Shown here in pieces: positions 194 through 14,543 of a stretch of 14,875 nucleotides of DNA (position 1 is its first letter; every line of letters begins with the position of its first letter). A model generated the notes under the pieces. The model saw nothing but the letters and a program-made list of their open reading frames with translations. It was not told the origin of the DNA and searched no databases. Location: positions 1-14,875 of the forward strand of contig JASFEA010000078.1 of the NCBI GenBank assembly GCA_050125095.1, given 5' to 3'. A program made the translations under genes and the position numbers. Origin of the DNA: a bacterium. GTDB taxonomy: Bacteria > Arandabacterota > Arandabacteria > Arandabacterales > JALGWA01.

Positions 194-1366
194 CTATCGC
201 GGAGGCGCCCCGGATCCCGCACAGGCTGAATCGAAAACGTCAATCGACCCGAGCACCTCTCCCGAGAAGTCGAAGACGGTGACGTTCTCCCAGGCCGAAC
301 CCAACGACGGCGCGGATATCCACTCGGGCGCCCAGTAGAAGACACCCAGCCCCAGCGAGCCCGGCACGTCGGCCACGATGTCCATGAGGTCAGCGAGAAA
401 CGCGCGCTGTCCCGCGACCGTGGCGGGATAGCCCGGCAGCAGGTGCTCCGGCAGGCCCACCATGTTATGCGTGTTGTCATGCCAGTCCAGCGTCCAGGGG
501 TAGGCCGTCTCCGCGATCACGATATCCTTACCGTAGCGGTATGAGAGGTCGGCGAGATTGGCCTCGAGGTCGTCAAGCGTGCCGTGCCACCACGGGTAGA
601 AAGACTGGCCGATTATGTCGAAGTCCACACCCTCGGCGATGAGGTGGTCGAAGAACCAGCGGCCCGCACTGTTGTCACCGCCGCGGTCTATGTGGATCAT
701 GATCCGGACGCTGTCCTCCGGCGCAGTCGCATCCCGGACGCCCCGGATCCCGGCGGATACGAGAGTCCCGAATACTTCCCATTGCTCCTCTGAATCGAAT
801 GAATCACATACGCGTCCGTCGTCCCAGAGCATGCCGCAGATAATCTCGTTCCCGATCTGCACCATGTCCGGCATCGTGCCCTGCGCGTCGAGCGCCTCAA
901 TCACGCTTCGCGTATACTCGCGCACGCTGTCCGCGAGCGCCTCGCCCCCCACGCCCGACCAGGCCGCCGGCTTCTTCTGACGCCCCGGGTCCGCCCAGGT
1001 GTCGGAGTAATGGAAATCGACTAGCAATCCAAGGCCCTTCTCCCTGGCGCGCGCCGCCATCAGGAGTGTGCTCCCAAGGTCGCAATAGCCCCCGGCCGGG
1101 TCCAGCCATATTCTAAGGCGAATGAAGTTGAAACCGTGATCCCGGAAGATATCGAGCGCGTCGCGGGGCTCTCCGCCCTCGGTGTAGATGCCTCCCCCGT
1201 CCTCAACCTGCTCGAGGAAGGAGACGTCCGCGCCCTTTATGAATTCAACCTGGCCGCATTCGCCGTCCAATGAGAGAAATACGGCCACGAGGGGCACAAG
1301 CAGACACAGGACAGGAGCCCGCAGCCAAGTCCGCAGTCTTCGGAGGCCGCGCGATTGGACGGGCAC
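194..1366 (-). CDS. Secreted arabinogalactan endo-1,4-beta-galactanase (GH53)
   Basis: Motifs IKGADVS, IRLRIW, DFHYSDTWADPG.Q.KP.AW, VQIGNEI (acid/base Glu), IAETAYP (nucleophile Glu) and GVFYW; basic then hydrophobic N-terminus. GTG start overlaps the upstream TAG by 1 nt (TAGTG). Confidence 0.93.
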   Translation of the reverse strand: MPVQSRGLRRLRTWLRAPVLCLLVPLVAVFLSLDGECGQVEFIKGADVSFLEQVEDGGGIYTEGGEPRDALDIFRDHGFNFIRLRIWLDPAGGYCDLGSTLLMAARAREKGLGLLVDFHYSDTWADPGRQKKPAAWSGVGGEALADSVREYTRSVIEALDAQGTMPDMVQIGNEIICGMLWDDGRVCDSFDSEEQWEVFGTLVSAGIRGVRDATAPEDSVRIMIHIDRGGDNSAGRWFFDHLIAEGVDFDIIGQSFYPWWHGTLDDLEANLADLSYRYGKDIVIAETAYPWTLDWHDNTHNMVGLPEHLLPGYPATVAGQRAFLADLMDIVADVPGSLGLGVFYWAPEWISAPSLGSAWENVTVFDFSGEVLGSIDVFDSACAGSGAPPR

Positions 1367-3321
1367 TATCGTACCCTGACCACCTTCTGGCTCACGCTTA
1401 TATCGCCCGATTCAAGGCGACAGAAGTATGCCCCGGGAGACACTCTCCTGCCCATGTCATCAAGCCCGTCCCAGGCGGTTGACCGCGTACCGGGCTCGGC
1501 CACGCCCTCAAGTAACGTTCTGACCTTCCGTCCCTTGATGTCATAGACCTCGAGCCTGATGTGGGAGACAACCGGCACCGTGAATGACAAACGCGTGCTG
1601 GTGGTGAAGGGACTCGGATAAGCCGGCCCGAGCGCGAATCCCCCATGCGCGGCCTGCACCGCCTCCACCGCCGCGTTCGGATTGACTACCGTGAACGAAT
1701 CGACAATCGAGCTGCCCGTATTGATCGCCTCGAAGTGAAGCAGGGGACCGTCGATATCGACCGTGCAGAAGTGGTAGGTCTTAGAAGTCGCGACTATGTA
1801 TGGATAGGAGTCATTTGGAGTATAAAGCGGCGCACCCGCGCCACCCGTCGTAACATGATGTATGTCGTTTACCACGGCGCGTGCGTAGTAATGGTTATGG
1901 CCTGCGAAGAGCATCGAGACGCCATGCTGGATAAGAAGAGGATGGATGACCGACTGAACTGTCGTGTTGTTCTCATGGCCCCCGGCCGACCAGCCCGGCT
2001 CATGGAGGTAGACTATCTTATACGGCTTGTCCGTAGTGGCCAGGTCGTTCACCAGCCACGCAAGCTGAGGAGACCCCGTCCCGTATGGCACGTACTGGTC
2101 AAGGACGGTGAAATGCACGGGCCCGTAATCAAAAGACCAGTACCTGTCGGCGACGTATGGACAAGGGAAGTACTTCTCAAAGAGAACCCCGTCTTCCTCG
2201 TGATTCCCCATACATGACTGATAGGGCAGGCAGGCCATCATCTCTCGAAGATAAGCGTAATCGGCGAATAGCTCGGTGTCCCATTCGGATTCGATATCCC
2301 CGTCCGACACCAGATCTCCCATCGACAGGATAATGGTCTGGAGGTCGGGGTCGGCCGTGTACTCAGCGATAACGTCCTGGGCCACCAGGTTATGGGCCGC
2401 AGGATACGTGCGGCAGTCGCCATAGGCAAAGAACTTGACCTGCATGGCTTCATCCGCCGGCGCGGCCCGGAAGGACCCGGCGTACTGCCCGGCCCCGGCA
2501 TTAACTCTATAATGATAGAGATTGCCGGGAGTGAGGCCGGTGATTGTATATGTATGCTGATAGTCCGTCCCGTAGACACCGGTCTCCGCGCTCCCCATCG
2601 AGTAGGAAGTATCGGTGCCCCACTCTATAAGGCACGAGTCCGGCAGCGAGAGCTGCCAGTGCACGTCCATCTCAGTATTGACATCGGAGTATATGAGGTA
2701 TGGCTGCTTTCTCACTAGCGTGGGCAGCGTTTCGAGACCAATCAGCTCGAGGTCGAAGCTTATATCTGAGCTCGTCCGCGACTGCTGGTGTATCTCGACC
2801 GCGATGACGTTGCTGCCGGCGAAGAGATCGTCCGCATAGAAATAGAGATCCTGGAAGGCGTCCTCATCACTGCTCCCGATAACATTCGGCGCGAGCGTCA
2901 TATAGCCGACCGGGCCATCCGGCATGTTGGCTCGTCTGACCTCGGTCCCGTTGAGATAGACAACCGCTCCGTCGTCCCGGACAAGCCTCAGCTTCATGCA
3001 GACGTAAGGCGAAGGGTCTACAACGTCGAAGGCATGCCTGAAATACGTCGTCACGTATTTGCTGCTCGAGCTGGGGCCGTAGCTCACCACGGTCGCCTCA
3101 TCCCCGTCGCCGTAGCCGAGCTGGGCGGGTCCGCTCGCCCATGCCGTGTCGGCGAATCCCGGAGCCGTCCAGGCCGCACCCTGGTCGGAGCCGTCATCGA
3201 GATACTTCCAGACGGAACCCGCGGAAACAAAAGTCATATCGGCGTGGGCTGCCGTCGAGGCCAGAACGGCCAGGAGCGCGATAACACCGGCACTCTTGAG
3301 ATATAAGTGTTCTGAAAGCAT
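1366..3321 (-). CDS. Secreted calcineurin-like metallophosphoesterase (PAP-like) with N-terminal beta-sandwich domain, FN3-like domain and C-terminal FlgD-Ig/T9SS-type sorting domain
   Basis: Signal peptide ending AHA. N-domain WKYLDDGSDQG...LGYGDGDE...DDGAVVYLNG...AVEIHQ; FN3-like HTYTITGLTPG..YHYRV; metal motifs GDCR, GDLV, GNHE, HEP, GHNH; C-terminal YPSPF...VYDIKGRKVRTL...WDG.D..G..V.PG.YF.RL. Confidence 0.88.
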   Translation of the reverse strand: MLSEHLYLKSAGVIALLAVLASTAAHADMTFVSAGSVWKYLDDGSDQGAAWTAPGFADTAWASGPAQLGYGDGDEATVVSYGPSSSSKYVTTYFRHAFDVVDPSPYVCMKLRLVRDDGAVVYLNGTEVRRANMPDGPVGYMTLAPNVIGSSDEDAFQDLYFYADDLFAGSNVIAVEIHQQSRTSSDISFDLELIGLETLPTLVRKQPYLIYSDVNTEMDVHWQLSLPDSCLIEWGTDTSYSMGSAETGVYGTDYQHTYTITGLTPGNLYHYRVNAGAGQYAGSFRAAPADEAMQVKFFAYGDCRTYPAAHNLVAQDVIAEYTADPDLQTIILSMGDLVSDGDIESEWDTELFADYAYLREMMACLPYQSCMGNHEEDGVLFEKYFPCPYVADRYWSFDYGPVHFTVLDQYVPYGTGSPQLAWLVNDLATTDKPYKIVYLHEPGWSAGGHENNTTVQSVIHPLLIQHGVSMLFAGHNHYYARAVVNDIHHVTTGGAGAPLYTPNDSYPYIVATSKTYHFCTVDIDGPLLHFEAINTGSSIVDSFTVVNPNAAVEAVQAAHGGFALGPAYPSPFTTSTRLSFTVPVVSHIRLEVYDIKGRKVRTLLEGVAEPGTRSTAWDGLDDMGRRVSPGAYFCRLESGDISVSQKVVRVR

Positions 3322-4120: not shown

Positions 4121-5005
4121 CTACTTGGCCAGCAGGTCCTTATCAAAGGAAGCGAGCTCCCCGCCCAGCTTCCAGATGCGGAGCCTGGATTCCTTGGGCT
4201 TGCCCAGAAGTTCATACATCTCCCTGTTGAGTCCCCAGAGCTCAATCCCCGTAAGCGTAACGGGTTCATGGGGCAATGTAATCCTCTTATATGAAATCCC
4301 GGGGAATATATTGAGAAGACGAGGCGTCAGCACAAGAAGGTCTATCTTGGTAGACCCCGTTTCGGTACGGGTAATCTTAAGGGGGTAGTACAAGTGGTCG
4401 GTCTCGAAGCGGTATTGAATCGCCTCACTGGTCCTGGGTTCCTCACACAGCGAAACCACATCGAAGACAAAATACTTGAATCCCTCCACCAGGTACTCCT
4501 GGACTACGGGCTTCAGTGACTCGGGTATGGTCGGATTCTCGGCGCCGGCCGAGTCCAGGTACTCCACGACCCAGGCGACAAAACCAGTCTCGTCGAGCAC
4601 ATGTGTGACCGAGATGTCGTGCGACCCGATCCTTTCATGGAACGTGACTTCTCCGGCCGGTTTCTCGTCCTCTTCCCCGGGTCCCTTTGCGCCACGCGTC
4701 GTCATCTTCTCAACCAGCTTTCTGTTGATGAGGGCGGTCGCCTTTGCAAATACTTCAACATCACCCTTCTTGACGACCGGCTCGGATGGAAGCGGAAGAA
4801 CCTCTAGCACCATTGTGGACTCGGAAGCCGCAAGATCCGTCGAGAGCAGCAATATCTCCTCCTCGCCGTTCCAGGCGATAAGCGCGCGCTGGTTGGGCTC
4901 GAATATCTCGACTCCGGGTTTGAACGGAATCGACCCGCGGTCGGCGCAGGCCGTCGATATGGCCAGGGCGATCATGATCGCCGCGAAACAGACTGTTCTT
5001 TTCAT
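4121..5005 (-). CDS. Secreted DUF2330-like protein
   Basis: Signal peptide, then Q.ALIAWNG.EE.LLL, VLPLPSEP.V, IG.HDISV, Y...GF.YFV, I.YRF....LYYPLKIT. ATG overlaps the upstream TGA (ATGA). Confidence 0.7.
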   Translation of the reverse strand: MKRTVCFAAIMIALAISTACADRGSIPFKPGVEIFEPNQRALIAWNGEEEILLLSTDLAASESTMVLEVLPLPSEPVVKKGDVEVFAKATALINRKLVEKMTTRGAKGPGEEDEKPAGEVTFHERIGSHDISVTHVLDETGFVAWVVEYLDSAGAENPTIPESLKPVVQEYLVEGFKYFVFDVVSLCEEPRTSEAIQYRFETDHLYYPLKITRTETGSTKIDLLVLTPRLLNIFPGISYKRITLPHEPVTLTGIELWGLNREMYELLGKPKESRLRIWKLGGELASFDKDLLAK

Positions 5006-5463
5006 TCTCTTCCCTCCATGGCCTGAAGATCTTTCCTGAAGTGTATCTTGCGCTGCACTTCTTCATAGCCGAGCGCCCTGTGCGCCGCCGGGCTGTCTGG
5101 GTACCTGGGTGTCGTGTCGGAAGCCATCTCGAGGCATCCCCTGGCGCGCGCCCATTTCTCAGCCTCTTCCACCAGCCGCCGGCCTAACCCGCGTCTCCGC
5201 ATGTCCGCGTCCACATACCAGCCTTCCAGGTAGCCCACGTTCCTCGTCCTGCACTTCTCGGCAGTCTGACGAATGGACACCTCCACCATTCCGCACAGGC
5301 CGCCACCCTCCCTCTCGGCTACGAAAACGGGCTGGGTCTCGAGCCGGCCGAGCATGTCGGAAACTTCGGCCTTGAGCTCGTCCGGGTCATGATGGGGCCA
5401 GAGCGCCATGCGCATTCGCAGCCACTCTTCAACGTCATGCTCTGTCAGGTAGCGGATATTCAT
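5002..5463 (-). CDS. GNAT acetyltransferase, aminoglycoside 6'-N-acetyltransferase AAC(6')-I-like
   Basis: Start moved to ATG 5463 (GGAGA RBS, 4 nt after the tag stop). Motifs WLRMRMALWP, GYLEGWYV, RRRGLGRRL (acetyl-CoA binding), WAR.RGC.EMASDT, HRALGY, FRK.L. Confidence 0.82.
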   Translation of the reverse strand: MNIRYLTEHDVEEWLRMRMALWPHHDPDELKAEVSDMLGRLETQPVFVAEREGGGLCGMVEVSIRQTAEKCRTRNVGYLEGWYVDADMRRRGLGRRLVEEAEKWARARGCLEMASDTTPRYPDSPAAHRALGYEEVQRKIHFRKDLQAMEGRE

Positions 5464-5467
5464 GCGC

Positions 5468-5551
5468 TTATCTCCCAGCTTTACTCCCGCGTGTCCTGCC
5501 GCTTGCCCTACCGCTCTTACTGCCTCTCTTGATGCCGCTCTTAATGCCGCG
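5468..5551 (-). repeat. Seven degenerate 12-nt tandem repeats encoding the basic C-terminal tail of Tag
   Basis: Minus strand: CGCGGCATTAAG AGCGGCATCAAG AGAGGCAGTAAG AGCGGTAGGGCA AGCGGCAGGACA CGCGGGAGTAAA GCTGGGAGATAA = RGIK SGIK RGSK SGRA SGRT RGSK AGR*. Confidence 0.8.
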
Positions 5552-6145
5552 CATCTTCCCAACCTCTTTATGTCTGAAGCAGGAGACAAGGTGGTCATTC
5601 ACCATTCCCGCGGCCTGCATATATGCGTAGCAGATGGTCGGGCCGACGAAACTGAAGCCGCGCTCTTTAAGGTCCTTGCTCATTGCCCTGGACTCGGAGG
5701 TCTCACAGGGGATCTGCTTCAGCGCTTTCCACTTGTTCTGTCTGGTCTTGCCGCCCACGAACTGCCAGATATATCTGTCGAAGCTCCCGAACTCCTCCTG
5801 CACCTTCAGAAAAGCGCGCGCATTCCTGACGGCGCCCTCAATCTTGCGCCTGTTCCTTACGATGCCGGGGTCCCTGAGCAACCTCTCGATCTTGCGCCCG
5901 TCGAACTTCGCTACCTTCCTGGGGTCGAATCCCGCGAAGGCTCTGCGGTAGCCGTCACGCTTATTGAGGATAGTGCTCCAGCTCAAGCCCGCCTGGGCGC
6001 CGTCAAGCACGAGGAATTCGAAATGGGTAATATCGTCATGAACCGGCACTCCCCACTCCTCATCGTGATACCTCATGTAAACCGTCCCCGACTTCTCCGT
6101 GGCCCATGGGCACCTTGTCTGTTCGCGCTCAAGCCTCACTGCCAT
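5468..6145 (-). CDS. tag: DNA-3-methyladenine glycosylase I
   Basis: RCPW, YHDEEWG, QAGLSW.TIL.KR, IVRNR.KI, GF.FVGPT.CY..MQA.G.VNDH...C (Zn ligands C, H, H, C). Start ATG 6145 with GAGGAG RBS. Confidence 0.95.
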   Translation of the reverse strand: MAVRLEREQTRCPWATEKSGTVYMRYHDEEWGVPVHDDITHFEFLVLDGAQAGLSWSTILNKRDGYRRAFAGFDPRKVAKFDGRKIERLLRDPGIVRNRRKIEGAVRNARAFLKVQEEFGSFDRYIWQFVGGKTRQNKWKALKQIPCETSESRAMSKDLKERGFSFVGPTICYAYMQAAGMVNDHLVSCFRHKEVGKMRGIKSGIKRGSKSGRASGRTRGSKAGR

Positions 6146-6170
6146 AACCTGCGGCTCCTCTCTTTTCTCT

Positions 6171-6199
6171 ACTCTACGAAAGCTTAACATGTTACGCAA
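6171..6199 (-). promoter_or_regulatory. Putative sigma70 promoter for tag, with a palindrome in the spacer
   Basis: TTGCGT (6199-6194), 17 nt, TAGAGT (6176-6171); perfect palindrome TAACATGTTA at 6185-6194. Confidence 0.5.
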
Positions 6200-8530: not shown

Positions 8531-9511
8531 CTACTGCCGCTCGAGAAGGCCATCGATTTCGCGCATCTGCTCCTGCGCGAGCGGGCCGAACTCCATTGCC
8601 CCGGCATTCTCCTCAACCTGGCTCACGGTGCGAAAGCCGGGAATGGGTACGTTCTTCGGGCTCCGTGCCCACAGCCACGCCAATGCTCCCTGGGCCACCG
8701 TCCTTCCGCCGCTGCAGAGGATCTGGCGAATGGCTTCGCGCCTCTCCAGCCACTCCGGATTGGGCCGCCCGTCTTTGAAGTATTTCATCCACTCGGGGCT
8801 CTTCTCACCTCGGACGTCGTCGGGAGATGCCTTGGTTTCACCTGTGTACTTATCCGTCAGGACTCCCATCGCAAGCGGACCGCGGTTGATGGCAGCCAGG
8901 TCGTAACTCTCACAGATGGAAATCACGGCAGGGTTGTCGTCCAGCACGTTCAGCTGCAACTGAATCGCCGTGCACCTCGGCCCCTGAGCGAAGACCTCCG
9001 CCCGGTCCGGAAAATCTGTGCTCCAGCCATAGGCGCGGATTTTGCCCTCGGCCACAAGCTCTTCGAGCGTGTCGCGCACCGGCAGGGCGTCGTCCGCAGG
9101 GAACGCGTTGTCATGGAATTGAAACAAGTCGACGTAGTCGGTATTCAGGCGGCGCAGGGAATCTTCCAGAGCGGCCCGAATGCCGGCCGGTGATGTGTCC
9201 ACGCCCGTAACCTTACGTGCGGTCTCATCAAACACCGCATTGAATTTGGTGGCGATCACAACCTCAGTCCGGCGGCCGGAAAGCGCCCTGCCGAGAACGC
9301 GTTCGCTGTGTCCCGTGCCATAAACATTGGCCGTGTCGAAGAAATCGACTCCCCGTTCGAGCGCAGCATGGATGGCGCGGACAGACTCCTCGTCATCTAC
9401 TTCACCCCAACCGAGTGGGTGATTCCCATCGCCCCAGGGTCCACCAATCGCCCAGCAACCCATACCTACGCTGCTCACCTCAATCCCAGAGCGTCCCAGG
9501 TTGCGCCTCAT
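8531..9511 (-). CDS. Aldo/keto reductase
   Basis: Start moved to ATG 9511 (AGGAGAGG RBS). RNLGRSGIEVS.VGMGCWAIGG, DTANVYG.GHSE, IATKF, SLRRLNTDYVDLFQFH, IPGFRT; catalytic D/Y/K/H tetrad present. Confidence 0.93.
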   Translation of the reverse strand: MRRNLGRSGIEVSSVGMGCWAIGGPWGDGNHPLGWGEVDDEESVRAIHAALERGVDFFDTANVYGTGHSERVLGRALSGRRTEVVIATKFNAVFDETARKVTGVDTSPAGIRAALEDSLRRLNTDYVDLFQFHDNAFPADDALPVRDTLEELVAEGKIRAYGWSTDFPDRAEVFAQGPRCTAIQLQLNVLDDNPAVISICESYDLAAINRGPLAMGVLTDKYTGETKASPDDVRGEKSPEWMKYFKDGRPNPEWLERREAIRQILCSGGRTVAQGALAWLWARSPKNVPIPGFRTVSQVEENAGAMEFGPLAQEQMREIDGLLERQ

Positions 9512-9640
9512 AAGTCCTCTCCTTGCTCCCTGATCAATAGGATGTTCACACTCTCCGTTGGACGGCTTCCGCATCTGCTGGCGGTATGACCACTTCTTTC
9601 GCGAAACGCCCTTCGACCTCCTTTGGATGCCCCGCTGACA

Positions 9641-9671
9641 GCGGCGGTTCATCAGTAAACATAACCGCCGC
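9641..9671. other. Perfect 9-bp inverted repeat downstream of the tRNA
   Basis: GCGGCGGTT (9641-9649) / AACCGCCGC (9663-9671) with a 13-nt loop; a minus-strand TTGACA lies at 9681-9676. Confidence 0.5.
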
Positions 9672-9719
9672 GGGATGTCAAGAATAGCCCGCCGGGGTGA
9701 ATCGTAGATGAAAAGCAAT

Positions 9720-9808: not shown

Positions 9809-10591
9809 TTACTTATTTTTGAAGTCGGGCTTACGCTTCTCTAAGAAAGCCGTCGTGCCTTCCTTGCAGTCTTCTGTCGCGAATACAAGACCGAAGAGGT
9901 CGGCTTCGAGAACCAGTCCCTCTTCGAGCGTGACATTGAGACCGCTGTTAACAGCTTCCAGGCAGTATTTTAGTGCTATGGGTGCCTTAAGCGCAATAGT
10001 CTTCGCGAGCTTCTCGCATGTTTCCATGAGCTCGGCCTGCGGAACGACTTTGTTGACGAGCCCCCACCTGGCCGCCGTCTCGGCGTCGATGGGGTAGCCC
10101 GAGAGTATCATCTCCATGGCGCGGCCCTTCCCCACGAGCCTCGGGAGCCGCTGGGTGCCGCCGTAGCCGGGGATCAGGCCCAGGTTCACCTCGGGCTGCC
10201 CCATTTTGGCATTGTCGGAGGCAACGCGGAAGGTGCAGGCCATGGCGATCTCGCAGCCCCCGCCCAGGGCGAAGCCGTTCACGGCGCCTATCACGGGCTT
10301 GCCGAGATTCTCCATTAGGGTAAGGAGTCCCTGGCCCCGCTTGGCGTAGTCCCTCGCGCCGTCGCAATCCAGTGTCTTGAACTCGCCGATGTCGGCCCCC
10401 GCGACGAATGACTTCTCGCCGGCCCCGGTCAGGATTACCACGCGGATGCTATCGTCGGCCTTTAGGTCTTCGAAGGCGTCGATGAGCTCCTTGACCGTTG
10501 CTATGCTCAGGGCGTTCAGCACTTTGGGCCGGTTCACGGTCACGTAGCCGATGCCGTCCCTTTTCTCTAAGATTATGTTCTCATACGCCAT
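9809..10591 (-). CDS. crt: Short-chain enoyl-CoA hydratase (crotonase)
   Basis: NRPKVLNAL, FVAGADI, AVNGFALGGGCE, GQPEVNLG.IPG.GGTQRL.RLVG, AFLEKRKP.F; both catalytic Glu present; GGAGG RBS. Confidence 0.92.
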   Translation of the reverse strand: MAYENIILEKRDGIGYVTVNRPKVLNALSIATVKELIDAFEDLKADDSIRVVILTGAGEKSFVAGADIGEFKTLDCDGARDYAKRGQGLLTLMENLGKPVIGAVNGFALGGGCEIAMACTFRVASDNAKMGQPEVNLGLIPGYGGTQRLPRLVGKGRAMEMILSGYPIDAETAARWGLVNKVVPQAELMETCEKLAKTIALKAPIALKYCLEAVNSGLNVTLEEGLVLEADLFGLVFATEDCKEGTTAFLEKRKPDFKNK

Positions 10592-10611: not shown

Positions 10612-11721
10612 CTAAAGGGGCAGGGTGTCCACGGTTTCAGGATATGTCTTGGCTTTCTCTTCTCCTCTTAAGACCCTCAGCGAACCCAGCACGAGGGCTT
10701 CCATCTCGTCCTCGCCGGGATAGATCATGACCGGGGCGATATGCCCGACTCGTTCCTTGATCCAGCCCACTATCATCTCACTCCCAGAGAGGCCCCCGGT
10801 CAGCACGATTGCGTCGACGTCGCCCATCAGCACCGTCGCCATCGCCCCGATTTCCTTGGCTATCTGGTAAGCCATAGTCTGGTAGACGAGGGCCGCGTGC
10901 TCGTCGCCCGATCTCACCCTCTCCTCCACTTCCCTGGCGGAGTTACTTCCCAGATGGGAAACAAGCCCGCCGTGGCCTATGAGCTCGCGCTTGGCCTCTT
11001 CCCTGCCGAGCTTGTTATCGAAGATGAAGTCGATGAGCCCCATGGTGGGAACGGTACCGGCGCGCTCGGGGGTGAACGGGCCGCCCGAGTTGGCGTCATT
11101 AGCGTCCACGACACGGCCCCTCCTCAAAGGGCATACGGATATGCCGCCCCCCATATGGGCCACTATGAGATTTATCTCCTCGAGGCTCTTCTTCATGTCA
11201 GCCGCCGCCAGGCGCGCGGTGGCCTTTATGTTGAGGGCATGCGCGAGGCTCCGCCTCGCCACGGTCTTAAGGCCGGACAGCCGCGCCATGGGTTCGAATT
11301 CGTCCACGCTGGGTGGGTCCACCATGAATGCGGGAATCCCGAGGTCCCAGCCTATGCCATAGGCAAGCACCGGTCCCAGGTTGGCCGCATGCTGGCCCTG
11401 CACACCCTCGCGGCCGTCGTTTATCATGAGCTGGTTGACTTCATACGTGCCGCTCACCACCGGCCTCAAGAGCCCTCCCCTACCGACCACAGCCGTGAGC
11501 GAATGCACGTCGATATCGTTCCGCCGGAGCGCATCCAGTATGGTCTTCTTCCTGAACTCGTACTGGTCCCAGATACTCTCGAAAGGTGAGAGGTCGAGCT
11601 CGGAGTGCCTGATGGTCTCCTCAAGCACCGCCGTCTCGTTGTCGAATACGGCGATCTTGGTGGAGGTGGAACCCGGATTGATGGCGAGTATCCTGTGCTT
11701 GTCGGTCTTGTTCTCAGGCAT
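10612..11721 (-). CDS. buk: Butyrate kinase (branched-chain carboxylic acid kinase)
   Basis: INPGSTSTK, GRGG, HA.NLG, VDP..VDE, HALN.KA, HMGGGIS, GPF.PER, LTGG, PGEDE. Start is ATG 11721 or GTG 11724, with GAGGT RBS. Confidence 0.95.
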   Translation of the reverse strand: MPENKTDKHRILAINPGSTSTKIAVFDNETAVLEETIRHSELDLSPFESIWDQYEFRKKTILDALRRNDIDVHSLTAVVGRGGLLRPVVSGTYEVNQLMINDGREGVQGQHAANLGPVLAYGIGWDLGIPAFMVDPPSVDEFEPMARLSGLKTVARRSLAHALNIKATARLAAADMKKSLEEINLIVAHMGGGISVCPLRRGRVVDANDANSGGPFTPERAGTVPTMGLIDFIFDNKLGREEAKRELIGHGGLVSHLGSNSAREVEERVRSGDEHAALVYQTMAYQIAKEIGAMATVLMGDVDAIVLTGGLSGSEMIVGWIKERVGHIAPVMIYPGEDEMEALVLGSLRVLRGEEKAKTYPETVDTLPL

Positions 11722-11739
11722 CACTGACCTCGGTCTTCT

Positions 11740-12828
11740 CTAGACCTCCGGCTGCGGGGCCTTTGCGAGAATGCTTCTCACGCCGCCCACCCGCTCTATC
11801 CGGTCCTCGGCCATCCTGCGCGCGGCCCGGAAGGGTGGCATACTCTCTCTCTCCGCATAGTCGAATACGCTTACGAGCACTTCGAATATCTCGCATGCTC
11901 TCGCGATGGTCTCCTGCTCGGTCGCCGCCTGCAGACCGTCGGAGGTCTGGAAGAGCTCGCCCGCGCTGATGACGAAGTCGGGCGCGTACAGTATTTCTTT
12001 CTTGTGAAGGTAGTCCCCCACGCTGCTCGATTCCAGGATGTCATAGGCAGCACCTGCTATGATCTTGCACTTGAGTTTCTCGGCCCTCTCCTGGGTGATA
12101 ACCCCGCCGAAGGCGCAGGGCGAGAAGATGTCGCAATCGCATTCGTAGATTTCATCGGGCCTCACGATCTCGGCCGAGGGCACCAGGTCCTGAACGCGCT
12201 TCATGGCGTCATAGACGATGTCGGTGATTATGAGGCGCGCGCCCTCTTCATCGAGATACCGCGCCAGGTTGTAGCCGACCTCACCCACGCCCTGTATGGC
12301 CACTGTGCGCCCCTTCACGGATGAGACGCCGTACTTGGCCTTGCAGCAGGCCCGCATCCCCCACAGGACCCCGTGGGCGGTGGCTTTGCCGCCCAGGCTT
12401 CCTTCGCGGGCGCGGCTGACGAAGGGCGCGATATACCCGGTCTCGCGCCTTATGTAGAGCATATCGCGGTCGTCCGTGCCGAGGTCGGCGTAGGTTATGA
12501 ACCGCCCGCCAAGGCCCTCGATGAACCGGCCGAATGCCCGGAAGTAGGCTTCGCTCTTGCCGCCGGCGGGATCTCTCCAAAGTATCCCCTTGCCGCCCCC
12601 CGTGTCGCAGTCCGAGACCGCGGCCTGGTAGGTCATGCTGCGGGAGAGCCTGAGCGCCTCGCTAATCGCGGCGTCTTCCGACCCGTAGTCCCACATCCTT
12701 GTGCCGCCCAGGGCCGGGCCCAGGGTGGTATCGTGCACCGCTATTATGGCGCGAAGCTCCGTCCTCTGGTCATAGCAGAAGACCAGCTCCTCATGTCCGT
12801 ACTCGTCCATGAGGTCGAATATGCCCAC
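11740..12828 (-). CDS. Glu/Leu/Phe/Val dehydrogenase family protein, leucine-dehydrogenase-like with an altered active site
   Basis: HDTTLGPALGGTRM, GGGK, QGVGEVG Rossmann motif, ITDI, CDIFSPCA.G, YAPDFV; GTG start with GGAGG RBS. Substrate-binding residues are substituted (see findings), so no gene symbol is assigned. Confidence 0.9.
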   Translation of the reverse strand: MGIFDLMDEYGHEELVFCYDQRTELRAIIAVHDTTLGPALGGTRMWDYGSEDAAISEALRLSRSMTYQAAVSDCDTGGGKGILWRDPAGGKSEAYFRAFGRFIEGLGGRFITYADLGTDDRDMLYIRRETGYIAPFVSRAREGSLGGKATAHGVLWGMRACCKAKYGVSSVKGRTVAIQGVGEVGYNLARYLDEEGARLIITDIVYDAMKRVQDLVPSAEIVRPDEIYECDCDIFSPCAFGGVITQERAEKLKCKIIAGAAYDILESSSVGDYLHKKEILYAPDFVISAGELFQTSDGLQAATEQETIARACEIFEVLVSVFDYAERESMPPFRAARRMAEDRIERVGGVRSILAKAPQPEV

Positions 12829-12883
12829 GTTTTACCTCCCGTAGGGTTAAGAGGCCGGCATCGGATACAACCCGGCCTAGCAC

Positions 12884-12912
12884 TAGATACCACATAGGCA
12901 GGCGCATGTCAA
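12884..12912 (-). promoter_or_regulatory. Putative sigma70 promoter for the dehydrogenase-buk-crt-tRNA operon
   Basis: TTGACA (12912-12907), 17 nt, TATCTA (12889-12884) with extended TG; a 7-bp hairpin AGGCCGG/CCGGCCT (12852-12878) follows. Confidence 0.55.
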
Positions 12913-12931: not shown

Positions 12932-14449
12932 CTACCAGGTGCCCGAGCCGATCTCAATAACGTAGGTGAGCCGGTCTATGTCGAAAAAACCGTAGTTCTT
13001 GATACCCGCCCGTATGCCCCAGAAGTCGGTGAGGAAGGACATGAAGCTGAATGGCGAGTGGGCCAGGTTGGCCCTGAACCTTATGCCGGTTTCCATCACG
13101 AAGTCGTTTCTGGTCTTTGTGGTCCACCTGTCGTCCTCATAGACATCGTACTTGTCCCACTCCCAGCCGGCGGAGAGGTACCCGTCCATCCAGCGCGAGG
13201 CCGATGGCGTGTAGTGGAGCATGTACCCGATATCACGCAGACGCTTGTCCTTCAAGTAAACGCGCTGGCAGATGTAGCCGCCCGCGACGGGGTCCTCGAA
13301 CGTCTTGACGATGAAGAAGGGCAGAATCACGTCAACGCCGAGATCGCCGTCGGCCATGAGCGACACCGAGATCGACTTGACAAACGACTCGGCGTTTCCC
13401 CACTCCACTACATGCGCCAGGCTCGAGGCACTCTCCACATCCGGCCAGTCGGGGTCGCCCTTGTCGGCGATGAAGTGAACCAGGTCGCGCTCGGCCTTCT
13501 CCGCCGACGGGAACGGCCTGAGCTCGTATATGGCCGCATCGGGAGCGTACCACCCGCCCTCACTGTGGATCTCGCGCAGGGGGCTGTCGGGCGGCAGGGG
13601 CGGAAATACCCTGAACCCGGGTCTCCTCACCTTGGTCATCCAGGCCTGGTAATTGCCTGTGAAGAGACCCCCGCTCCTCAGGACGTCGCGCACGCCCCAG
13701 GCGTCATTCACGCGCCTGTTGACGTCATAACCGGGAGTGAAGTAGCCGTCGGCGTTCTTGTCGGTGCACGATGCGTGCTTGCCTTCCTCCACGAGGATGT
13801 GGAGCGGGAACTTGACATACTCGTCTATGGAGAGCGTATTATCGTACCAGAGCACCCCGTGGGCCTTCCCCACGGCGCGGGTGACGGCGACGTTGTAGGG
13901 GCACTCCAGGCATTTCTCCCGCTTCCAGATCAGGACCTTGAGCTCGACCGACTCGACATCATGCGCATGGCCCCCGAAACCGGCTTCGGAGCTGTAGTAG
14001 AAGAAGTAGTCAAGGTCTACGGCAACCACGTTACCCAGGTCTATAACCGACTCGCCCCTGTCGTCAGGATCGGGCATGTAGGCGGTCTCCCTGTCGCCTG
14101 CCACCATGAGGTTCCGGACGCGGTAGTAGACAACCGCCCTCCCGCGATCTTCCTCGAACGGGAAGGGCTCCGGGAGCATGATGTCCTTCCCCTCCGTGTC
14201 CCCGAGCAGGGGCTCGTCGGGAGAGAACCACAGGACGGGCCCGCAGTAAGCCGCCAGGTCTTCGACAGTCATGAGGGAGTCGTCTCCGGACCACACAACG
14301 GCCTGCACTGTCCTGGAATCACAGCAGGGGATATCCTCGGGGTCCATCTCGATAGAGGTGAGTTTCCTTCTTCCTTCCGCCGGCCACGCGAGGAGCGCGA
14401 GGGACGTCAAAAAAACCAGCAGCAGAACCATACAATTGGGGGATTTCAT
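12932..14449 (-). CDS. Secreted hypothetical protein (505 aa): NPP1/Vps62-like motifs plus probable C-terminal outer-membrane beta-barrel
   Basis: Start moved to ATG 14449 (AAGGAGG RBS); signal peptide MKSPNCMVLLLVFLTSLALLAWPAEG; long ORF with GC-rich third codon positions; C-terminal amphipathic strands ending in Trp. The CDS is well supported; the function is not. Confidence 0.8.
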   Translation of the reverse strand: MKSPNCMVLLLVFLTSLALLAWPAEGRRKLTSIEMDPEDIPCCDSRTVQAVVWSGDDSLMTVEDLAAYCGPVLWFSPDEPLLGDTEGKDIMLPEPFPFEEDRGRAVVYYRVRNLMVAGDRETAYMPDPDDRGESVIDLGNVVAVDLDYFFYYSSEAGFGGHAHDVESVELKVLIWKREKCLECPYNVAVTRAVGKAHGVLWYDNTLSIDEYVKFPLHILVEEGKHASCTDKNADGYFTPGYDVNRRVNDAWGVRDVLRSGGLFTGNYQAWMTKVRRPGFRVFPPLPPDSPLREIHSEGGWYAPDAAIYELRPFPSAEKAERDLVHFIADKGDPDWPDVESASSLAHVVEWGNAESFVKSISVSLMADGDLGVDVILPFFIVKTFEDPVAGGYICQRVYLKDKRLRDIGYMLHYTPSASRWMDGYLSAGWEWDKYDVYEDDRWTTKTRNDFVMETGIRFRANLAHSPFSFMSFLTDFWGIRAGIKNYGFFDIDRLTYVIEIGSGTW

Positions 14450-14483
14450 AGGGGCCTCCTTTGCCCGCGTCCCGGACTGGTCA

Positions 14484-14511
14484 AGATTAGCAGAAGCTGG
14501 TGGTGCGGCAA
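14484..14511 (-). promoter_or_regulatory. Putative sigma70 promoter for the 505-aa protein
   Basis: TTGCCG (14511-14506), 16 nt, TAATCT (14489-14484) with extended TG. Confidence 0.5.
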
Positions 14512-14543
14512 AGCTCAATCCGTGCGGTCCAGCCAAAAACGGT

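Follow-up and report, generated by a model that had tools for sequence, protein, structure and literature searches.

The gene at positions 11740-12828 (minus strand) of contig JASFEA010000078.1 encodes a protein resembling leucine dehydrogenase (LeuDH), which is called type A throughout this paper. The term "window" is used for the whole stretch of 14,875 nucleotides that was analyzed. Type A is a previously undescribed branch of the leucine/phenylalanine/valine dehydrogenase family, for which a search of the open-access literature, subscription journals excluded, yielded no report. The residues by which LeuDH holds the carboxylate of its substrate are replaced in type A by a different, nearly invariant set of side chains. 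A butyrate kinase gene (buk) follows in all assessable genomes, and a paralogue without the catalytic lysine of LeuDH (type B) is co-inherited. As judged from the sequence, type A is probably not a leucine dehydrogenase, the corresponding activity apparently having been lost. We tentatively favor the interpretation that it is an accessory or sensor protein which binds nicotinamide adenine dinucleotide, NAD(H), and works together with Buk and type B.

Fold and Domain Assignment of Type A

Translation of 11740-12828 yielded a single uninterrupted frame of 362 amino acids, with a GTG start codon at 12828-12826. The gene and its upstream signals are as follows.

11740-12828, minus strand: type A LeuDH-like gene (P0001), 362 amino acids, ELFV fold, predicted NAD site intact, substrate cleft remodeled
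12835-12840, minus strand: ribosome-binding site GGGAGG, 6 nt ahead of the GTG start of type A
12884-12912, minus strand: promoter-like sequence TTGACA-17 nt-TATCTA, recognized by eye in the 103-nt gap upstream of type A and not flagged by the promoter scanner

Membership in the Glu/Leu/Phe/Val dehydrogenase superfamily was indicated by two Pfam domains, both above their gathering scores: ELFV_dehydrog_N (PF02812) with 80.3 bits (cut-off 25.3) and ELFV_dehydrog (PF00208) with 62.1 bits (cut-off 23.4). The NCBIfam model of tryptophan dehydrogenase ScyB (NF035922) gave 313 bits, below its cut-off of 600. Using phmmer against PDB chains, type A aligned almost without gaps to LeuDH 6acf (E-value 2.3e-99, residues 3-352 versus 3-351), further matches being LeuDH 8gxd, 3vpx, and 1leh; identity to the solved LeuDH proteins was 40-44%. 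An AlphaFold2 (AF2) model, calculated with 120 homologs as input, reached a pLDDT of 87.4, with weaker values at 139-143 and around 285-305, and Foldseek placed it on the LeuDH structures with TM scores of 0.85-0.91. The two-domain fold was found colinear with the solved enzymes, and the catalytic residues K80 and D115 of LeuDH are present.

Remodeled Substrate Cleft and Its Conservation

The LeuDH positions 68, 113, 114, 261, 262, 290, 291, and 294 recognize the substrate carboxylate or lie at most 6 Å from the substrate, as listed in Table 1 of PMC8766677. Carboxylate-binding K68 and N261/N262 are replaced in type A by Q68, Y262, and D263. The small or hydrophobic pocket of A113, G290, V291, and V294 is changed to Y113, E291, L292, and T295, and I292 of LeuDH to F293. 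At the level of motifs, MTYK of LeuDH reads MTYQ (Q68), ITAEDVGT reads ITYADLGT (Y113, A114), AGSANNQL reads AGAAYDIL (Y262, D263), NAGGVINV reads SAGELFQT (E291, L292, F293), and GNPS reads SLGG. Kept are GGGK with K80, D115, T150, the glycines of G180-x-G182-x-x-G185, and D203. Owing to an inserted residue, P217, the numbers of type A run one ahead of those of LeuDH beyond about residue 217, LeuDH N261, N262, and G290 corresponding to Y262, D263, and E291. The codons concerned are listed below, with their conservation among the type A homologs.

12625-12627, minus strand: Q68 codon CAG, replacing carboxylate-binding K68 (from alignment; Q in 119/119)
12589-12591, minus strand: K80 codon, LeuDH catalytic Lys kept (from alignment; K in 117/119, M in 2/119)
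12484-12492, minus strand: Y113-A114-D115 codons, LeuDH A113-E114-D115 (Y113 in 119/120, D115 in 120/120)
12274-12291, minus strand: G180-V-G-E-V-G185, dinucleotide-binding glycine motif (G180, G182, and G185 invariant)
12187-12222, minus strand: D203, the NAD ribose-binding Asp, and the helix motif Y206-D207-x-x-K210-x-x-Q213-D214, hallmark of the A superfamily
12040-12045, minus strand: Y262-D263 codons, LeuDH carboxylate contacts N261-N262, with Y262 as TAT at 12045-12043 (Y262 in 120/120)
11956-11958, minus strand: E291 codon, LeuDH G290, lost jointly with K80 in the sole two K80M sequences

The initial annotation of this gene, made from the sequence alone, had described it as colinear with LeuDH and had listed motif changes of the substrate site. 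All of these were borne out by the phmmer alignments to 6acf, 8gxd, and 3vpx, and the codon positions given there for Q68 and Y262 are correct. The reported integrity of K80, D115, the GxGxxG motif, the NAD-selecting Asp, and the reading frame agrees with these alignments and with the single open 362-residue frame.

For the analysis of conservation the 120 best non-redundant type A homologs were used, which share 50-100% identity and come from two phyla. Their source names, where given, were Candidatus Eisenbacteria and Zixibacteria. Phylum labels in this paper are these source names of homologs and were not taken from the window's own genome; the genome samples consist of incomplete metagenome-assembled genomes. 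Besides Q68, Y113, and Y262 the type A signature comprises D73 (118/119), D75 (119/119), E291 (117/120), and F293 (117/120). D203 is invariant, as are the three glycines. K and N at positions 68 and 261 were found in all 122 canonical LeuDH representatives. Pairwise dN/dS among type A genes was 0.08-0.12, where dS was unsaturated. Such a clade, sharing Q68, Y113, and Y262 and linked to buk, had been proposed as a search target by the initial annotation and was found. Scattered, non-conserved substitutions, named there beforehand as evidence against its proposal, were not seen, the signature being nearly invariant. Its view that the protein is no ordinary LeuDH gains support, both carboxylate-binding residues being replaced across a conserved clade under purifying selection. 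The fixed replacements of K68 and N261 look like a specific new arrangement. Since K68 and N261 are gone and the bulky or acidic residues Y113, Y262, E291, and F293 would line the pocket, binding of an alpha-amino or 2-oxo acid in the manner of LeuDH should be impossible for type A.

Two sequences deviate at the catalytic lysine. P0054 and P0055, 78% identical to each other, carry K80M together with E291G and keep Q68, D73, D75, Y113, D115, T150, and Y262. By these two sequences, type A has persisted without K80 in one sublineage. As the sole two K80M sequences are also the sole two E291G sequences, K80 and E291 probably interact in type A.

A Co-Inherited Paralogue Without the Catalytic Lysine

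The window's genome consists of 268 contigs and is 91% complete. It contains one other LeuDH-like gene, type B (G000 contig C101:7678-8742; L002:1498-2562), whose product shares 40% identity with type A. Type B keeps K68, N261/N262, and the Leu-type pocket and carries Q80, C150, and A112 (T112A); it looks like a ligand-binding, non-catalytic LeuDH. The initial annotation had suggested a search for a canonical paralogue with K68 and N261. No canonical LeuDH was found in this 91%-complete genome, and the companion that has both residues is devoid of K80.

This constellation recurs. Type A was detected in 15 of 18 genomes of the window's phylum, each time accompanied by another LeuDH-like gene, of type B; the other three have neither. 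Among the 14 type B genes assessable there, position 80 is Q in 10, H in three, and Y in one, D115 is replaced by G in 12, and T150 by C in all 14. In the protein database, the type B clade, with at least 61% identity to the type B of the window's genome, has 78 members, all lacking K80 (Q 62, H 14, Y 1, gap 1), with G115 in 50 and C150 in 77. The next 42 matches, canonical LeuDH proteins with at most 58% identity, all have K80, D115, and T150. Of 101 Zixibacteria genomes, ten carry type A, each together with a LeuDH of GGGQ form (K80Q), and one carries the K80Q form alone; one more Zixibacteria genome, G020, has both A and B. In a third phylum (87 genomes) a related type A' was found in eight, with K68 changed to S, N261 to T, S, or P, and G290 to D or E, and with K80 kept. 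Six of these eight have a companion B' in which position 80 is occupied by C, Y, Q, or S; in one the companion keeps K80, and in one no companion was detected. A K80-keeping protein, L213, was placed as sister of type B' in a quick tree (starred, 100). Overall, 34 genomes of three phyla contain A or A', of which 31 have a K80-less companion, one was not assessable, and two are exceptions. The variety of replacements for K80 (Q, H, Y, C, S) looks like loss of function in type B. The number of LeuDH-like paralogues rises to three or four in some third-phylum genomes.

Opposite conserved charges of A and B were noted at position 124 (K/R versus D/E) and position 306 (E versus R/K) in both phyla. 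They could mark a contact specific for the A/B pair or an internal salt bridge with its charges exchanged, and were not used as evidence. Position 210 is K in A and E or D in B or B', and position 207 is likewise among the opposite-charge sites. The idea that type B might act as a 2-hydroxy-acid dehydrogenase and supply a 2-hydroxyacyl-CoA dehydratase was considered and remains unsupported; one HGD-D match was obtained.

The Wider A Superfamily and Its Helix Motif

Trees were calculated with a quick method. In a tree of 86 sequences, type A proteins of both phyla formed one clade (starred, 97), and type A plus more divergent forms lacking K68 were split from all canonical LeuDH proteins by a starred branch (96). 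ESM Atlas returned only generic Leu/Phe/Val dehydrogenase clusters for type A. Comparison with 116 canonical representatives revealed two sets of conserved positions specific for type A, one in the cleft and one following D203. The latter comprises Y206, D207, K210, Q213, and D214, located on helix 206-215 of the AF2 model, and the polar spacing i, i+1, i+4, i+7, i+8 suggests one exposed helix face.

Scanning for D-x-x-[YF]-[DE]-x-x-K-x-x-[QKE]-D (core YDxxKxxQD) found this helix motif in 117 of 120 type A sequences, in 5 of 8 A' sequences, in 3 of 3 of a type C form, in 17 of 29 non-canonical representatives of 50% clusters, and in 4 of 4 further degenerate forms checked. It was absent from all 122 canonical representatives and from all 120 sequences of a set of type B plus canonical proteins. 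Position 80 varies across the superfamily (K, N, M, S, A, Q, or G). Type C, with R68, S80, E115, E291, and the helix motif, is followed by buk in the third phylum (L190, L196, L197, G021:C343). Three-gene modules were seen in L220:3491-6703, L221:3040-6274, and L222:3708-6931, composed of a LeuDH-like gene, buk, and a second LeuDH-like gene. The first gene has lost K68 and K80 and has a degenerate GxGxxG, with the helix motif kept; the second is degenerate to an even greater extent, and only its N-terminal ELFV domain is recognizable. By these sequences, the helix motif and the universal buk link characterize the group more sharply than do any of the catalytic residues. A LeuDH-like domain also occurs in open frames of about 1,190-1,250 residues (G183:C103:55248-56285, G185:C8:53550-54587, G186:C382:2890-3876), and the search for longer proteins further listed fusions with E1_dh, creatininase, and chorismate-binding domains.

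Operon Context and the Link to Butyrate Kinase

In the window the gene order is type A, buk, crt, and an aldo-keto reductase gene, all on the minus strand.

10612-11724, minus strand: butyrate kinase (buk), NCBIfam 493 and 477 bits, above the cut-offs, beginning 15 nt after the type A stop
9809-10591, minus strand: short-chain enoyl-CoA hydratase (crotonase, crt), third gene of the operon
8531-9718, minus strand: aldo-keto reductase, 90 nt after crt, present in one other relative only (L118)

The claim that the gene heads a buk-crt operon holds, the 534-residue frame upstream of it not being conserved beside type A in relatives. This frame (12932-14536, minus strand) has a GC content at third codon positions of 0.81 and a signal-peptide-like N-terminus and gave no Pfam or NCBIfam match. 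In the aldo-keto reductase the Pfam domain begins at residue 84, preceded by some 80 additional N-terminal residues.

In the window's phylum, A-buk was found in 14 of 14 assessable genomes, and A-buk-crt in 10 of 10 related loci whose contig reached that far. Nearby, often in divergent orientation, lie genes for carboxyltransferase, biotin carboxylase, biotin carrier, methylmalonyl-CoA mutase, and epimerase. Over all samples, buk follows every assessable gene of the A superfamily (41 of 41 genomes: 14 of the window's phylum, 10 Zixibacteria, eight with A', three with type C, six with degenerate forms). Canonical LeuDH genes of the third phylum are followed by buk in none of 12 cases.

Zixibacterium G089 carries, on one strand, genes for epimerase, A, buk, HMG-CoA-synthase-like protein, thiolase, OB-fold protein, carboxyltransferase, enoyl-CoA hydratase, biotin carboxylase, carrier, 3-hydroxyacyl-CoA dehydrogenase, thiolase, two acyl-CoA dehydrogenases (ACAD), crt, and B. 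With A and B at either end of this run, the two bracket a leucine/branched-chain catabolic operon. The two genes belong to a common cluster in G020, in G089, and in five third-phylum genomes, the order in this phylum being A'-buk-ACAD-EtfB-EtfA-ACAD-x-B'. In G071, A-buk lies 10 kb from ACAD-crt-B-buk2-ptb-IlvE-ptb, and in the window's phylum type B is found two genes from phosphate butyryltransferase (ptb). The window's genome further encodes four alpha subunits of 2-oxoacid:ferredoxin oxidoreductase, an IlvE-type aminotransferase, glutamate dehydrogenase (GDH), and a second Buk; no convincing match for E1 of branched-chain 2-oxo-acid dehydrogenase was found there. From these operon contexts and the gene complement of the genome, the setting is fermentative amino-acid catabolism that ends in acyl-phosphate and ATP.

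Proposed Role and Competing Explanations

The absence of K68, the presence of the helix motif, and the buk link are shared superfamily-wide, and none of them is catalytic, as would be expected for a family of partner-binding pseudoenzymes. This interpretation is further suggested by the loss of the catalytic Lys and, in some members, of the NAD motif, with the gene arrangement unbroken. The window's protein would be an NAD(H)-responsive version, since its NAD site is kept. In the mechanism we envisage, type A would bind NAD+/NADH, and the polar helix face after D203 (Y206, D207, K210, Q213, D214) would contact a partner, the candidates being the butyrate kinase whose gene starts 15 nt downstream and the co-inherited type B, singly or together. 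In this way the final, ATP-yielding part of branched-chain amino-acid and short-chain acyl-CoA fermentation would be adjusted to the redox state. The NAD(H) binding, the physical contact, and the regulatory effect are all predictions.

The closest functional parallel is ADLP of Thermus thermophilus, an alanine-dehydrogenase-like protein without catalytic Lys that binds NAD+/NADH; its gene adjoins that of butyryl-CoA:acetate CoA transferase, and the ADLP complex inhibits this enzyme with NAD+ bound, as described in a preprint (bioRxiv 10.1101/2025.10.31.685773). By that description, ADLP and type A are both dehydrogenase look-alikes with the NAD(H) site kept (for type A as read from the sequence), encoded beside a terminal enzyme of short-chain fatty-acid formation, and both clades are defined by the loss of canonical active-site residues. 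The window's protein shares with ADLP the retained dinucleotide-binding motif (G180, G182, G185, D203) and the gene position directly beside a short-chain-acid enzyme (buk, 41/41) but differs in that K80 is present. ADLP differs also in its partner, a CoA transferase, and in that its complex has been proven, that of type A being predicted.

Several points weigh against the accessory or sensor interpretation. Among the type A proteins proper K80 (117/119), D115 (120/120), T150 (120/120), and the GGG loop (at least 118/119) are conserved, and a pure NAD sensor has no obvious need for them. K68 is changed to Q, and N261 and E114 are replaced as well, which are positions altered in the engineered amine dehydrogenases described in PMC8766677. 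The filled pocket and the exposed helix face are read from residue identities and helix periodicity. A position beside buk may mean no more than membership in a common pathway; among 75 canonical LeuDH loci, buk is at most 300 nt away in 15, all of them in Bacillota. ADLP belongs to a different fold family and provides an analogy only. Fusions with Buk or Ptb, and of A with B, were absent from the five longer proteins found, which is weak evidence.

The same conservation of K80, D115, T150, the GGGK loop, and the NAD motif, together with the low dN/dS of 0.08-0.12, is what one would expect of a natural enzyme resembling an amine dehydrogenase. Such an enzyme would use K80/D115 and NAD(H) in deaminating or aminating a substrate without alpha-carboxylate, the product passing via acyl-CoA and acyl-phosphate to Buk. 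Replacement of K68 and N261 with K80 and D115 kept is also the pattern of the engineered enzymes, and the new D263 (or N263) and E291 could hold a cationic or polar group. We consider this possible but less likely than an accessory role. The conserved neighborhoods consist of branched-chain amino-acid and acyl-CoA catabolic genes and show no evident step that would form or consume an amine, and the four larger side chains leave little room in the pocket. The K80M/E291G sublineage persists, relatives without K80 or the Rossmann motif keep the gene arrangement, and the family-specific helix motif and the obligate type B partner would stay unexplained. A role in lysine fermentation, with a substrate of the 3,5-diaminohexanoate or 3-aminobutyryl-CoA type, was dropped, as neither of its markers, Kce (PF05853) and the KamA C-domain (PF12544), turned up in the genome, which is 91% complete.

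The complementary losses in the two paralogues, A lacking K68/N261 and B lacking K80 and often D115, raise the question of an A/B hetero-oligomer, assembled in the manner of LeuDH subunits, in which the opening reaction of branched-chain amino-acid breakdown would be divided between the two. B might, for instance, hold the amino acid and carry out hydride transfer, with A providing the water/ammonia chemistry or allosteric control. Co-occurrence in 31 of 34 genomes of three phyla, the position of A and B around one Leu-catabolic operon in G089 and in clusters of G020 and the third phylum, and the missing canonical LeuDH in the window's genome are in line with it. In solved structures of LeuDH, phenylalanine dehydrogenase (PheDH), and GDH, however, each active site is, as far as is known, built from one subunit, and neither site would be complete in the heteromer. 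IlvE-type aminotransferase and GDH can supply the deamination, the A/B charge swap may be an intra-chain salt bridge, and in some Zixibacteria A and B each have their own buk. We regard both the hetero-oligomer and the division of labor just outlined as rather improbable. Lower still is our estimate for the most far-reaching version, in which A and B would be obligate partners splitting the LeuDH reaction (B forming the imine, A handling water/ammonia) in a complex with butyrate kinase. If true, this would be the first split-function amino-acid dehydrogenase, and uncultured fermenters from three or more phyla would couple deamination directly to substrate-level phosphorylation.

A decaying, functionless LeuDH gene would account for the missing residues deemed essential for substrate binding. 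It is excluded by the conservation data and is given next to no weight: the frame is intact and has a good ribosome-binding site, the signature is fixed in 120 homologs of two phyla, dN/dS is about 0.1, and synteny is conserved. The initial annotation had offered two alternatives, an amine dehydrogenase or a non-catalytic NAD(H)-binding subunit. Both survive, and the new evidence leans to the second because of the K80-less partner, the dispensability of K80 in one sublineage and many relatives, and the helix motif with its buk link.

Comparison With Known Systems

Among characterized proteins, type A shares fold, length, K80, D115, T150, and the NAD motif with LeuDH (Bcd; 6acf, 1leh, 3vpx, 8gxd) of the ptb-bcd-buk operons of Bacillota. 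Adjacency to buk is constant for type A and is found for the Bacillota LeuDH genes in the 15 of 75 canonical loci mentioned above. Unlike LeuDH, type A has K68, N261/N262, A113, G290, and I292 replaced, carries the additional helix motif after D203, lies outside the canonical radiation, and is accompanied by a K80-less paralogue. The amine dehydrogenases engineered from LeuDH and PheDH (e.g., K68S/N261L with E114V; PMC8766677) are changed at the same positions 68, 261, and 114 and at the pocket positions 291 and 294. The replacements described there are small and hydrophobic, in contrast to the large or acidic ones of type A (Y262, Y113, E291).

The Thermus pair GdhA/GdhB (PDB 3aoe), to which the initial annotation had compared the gene, likewise belongs to the ELFV superfamily and consists of two co-occurring paralogues, of which at least one is non-catalytic according to the preprint cited above for ADLP. 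The analogy fits loosely: co-occurrence of A and B was found, but GdhB is a complete enzyme, whereas type A (no K68/N261) and type B (no K80) each lack an essential LeuDH residue and neither has a complete LeuDH site. Native amine dehydrogenases of the AmDH4/MsmeAmDH type belong to a fold family unrelated to LeuDH and catalyze the reaction that the amine-dehydrogenase explanation would assign to type A.

Implications

All type A and type B proteins are named "leucine dehydrogenase" in their source names by automatic annotation. Metabolic reconstructions of Eisenbacteria-like bacteria, Zixibacteria, and related uncultured fermenters may credit these organisms with an enzyme that is possibly absent. 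The results define a large, conserved, uncharacterized branch of a textbook enzyme family, with a predicted surface-helix motif and a fixed buk link as hallmark, and a co-inherited pair of paralogues with complementary active-site losses. Should type A be a redox sensor for Buk, control of short-chain fatty-acid output by dehydrogenase-derived pseudoenzymes, newly described for one Thermus case, would apply to several phyla and to a second fold as well. Should it be an active enzyme, a natural amine dehydrogenase on the LeuDH scaffold would be of direct interest for biocatalysis.

Other Genes of the Window

A GNAT acetyltransferase gene (5002-5598, minus strand) reached 133 bits on the NCBIfam model of aminoglycoside 6'-N-acetyltransferase group E, under the cut-off of 140 bits. 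Its longest open frame overlaps the 3-methyladenine glycosylase gene at 5468-6199, and the true start is probably later. The region 194-3321 (minus strand) encodes a GH53 galactanase and a metallophosphatase of 651 residues with a C-terminal sorting domain (Por) of the type IX secretion system, which suggests a secreted, polymer-degrading lifestyle of a bacterium that uses type IX secretion.

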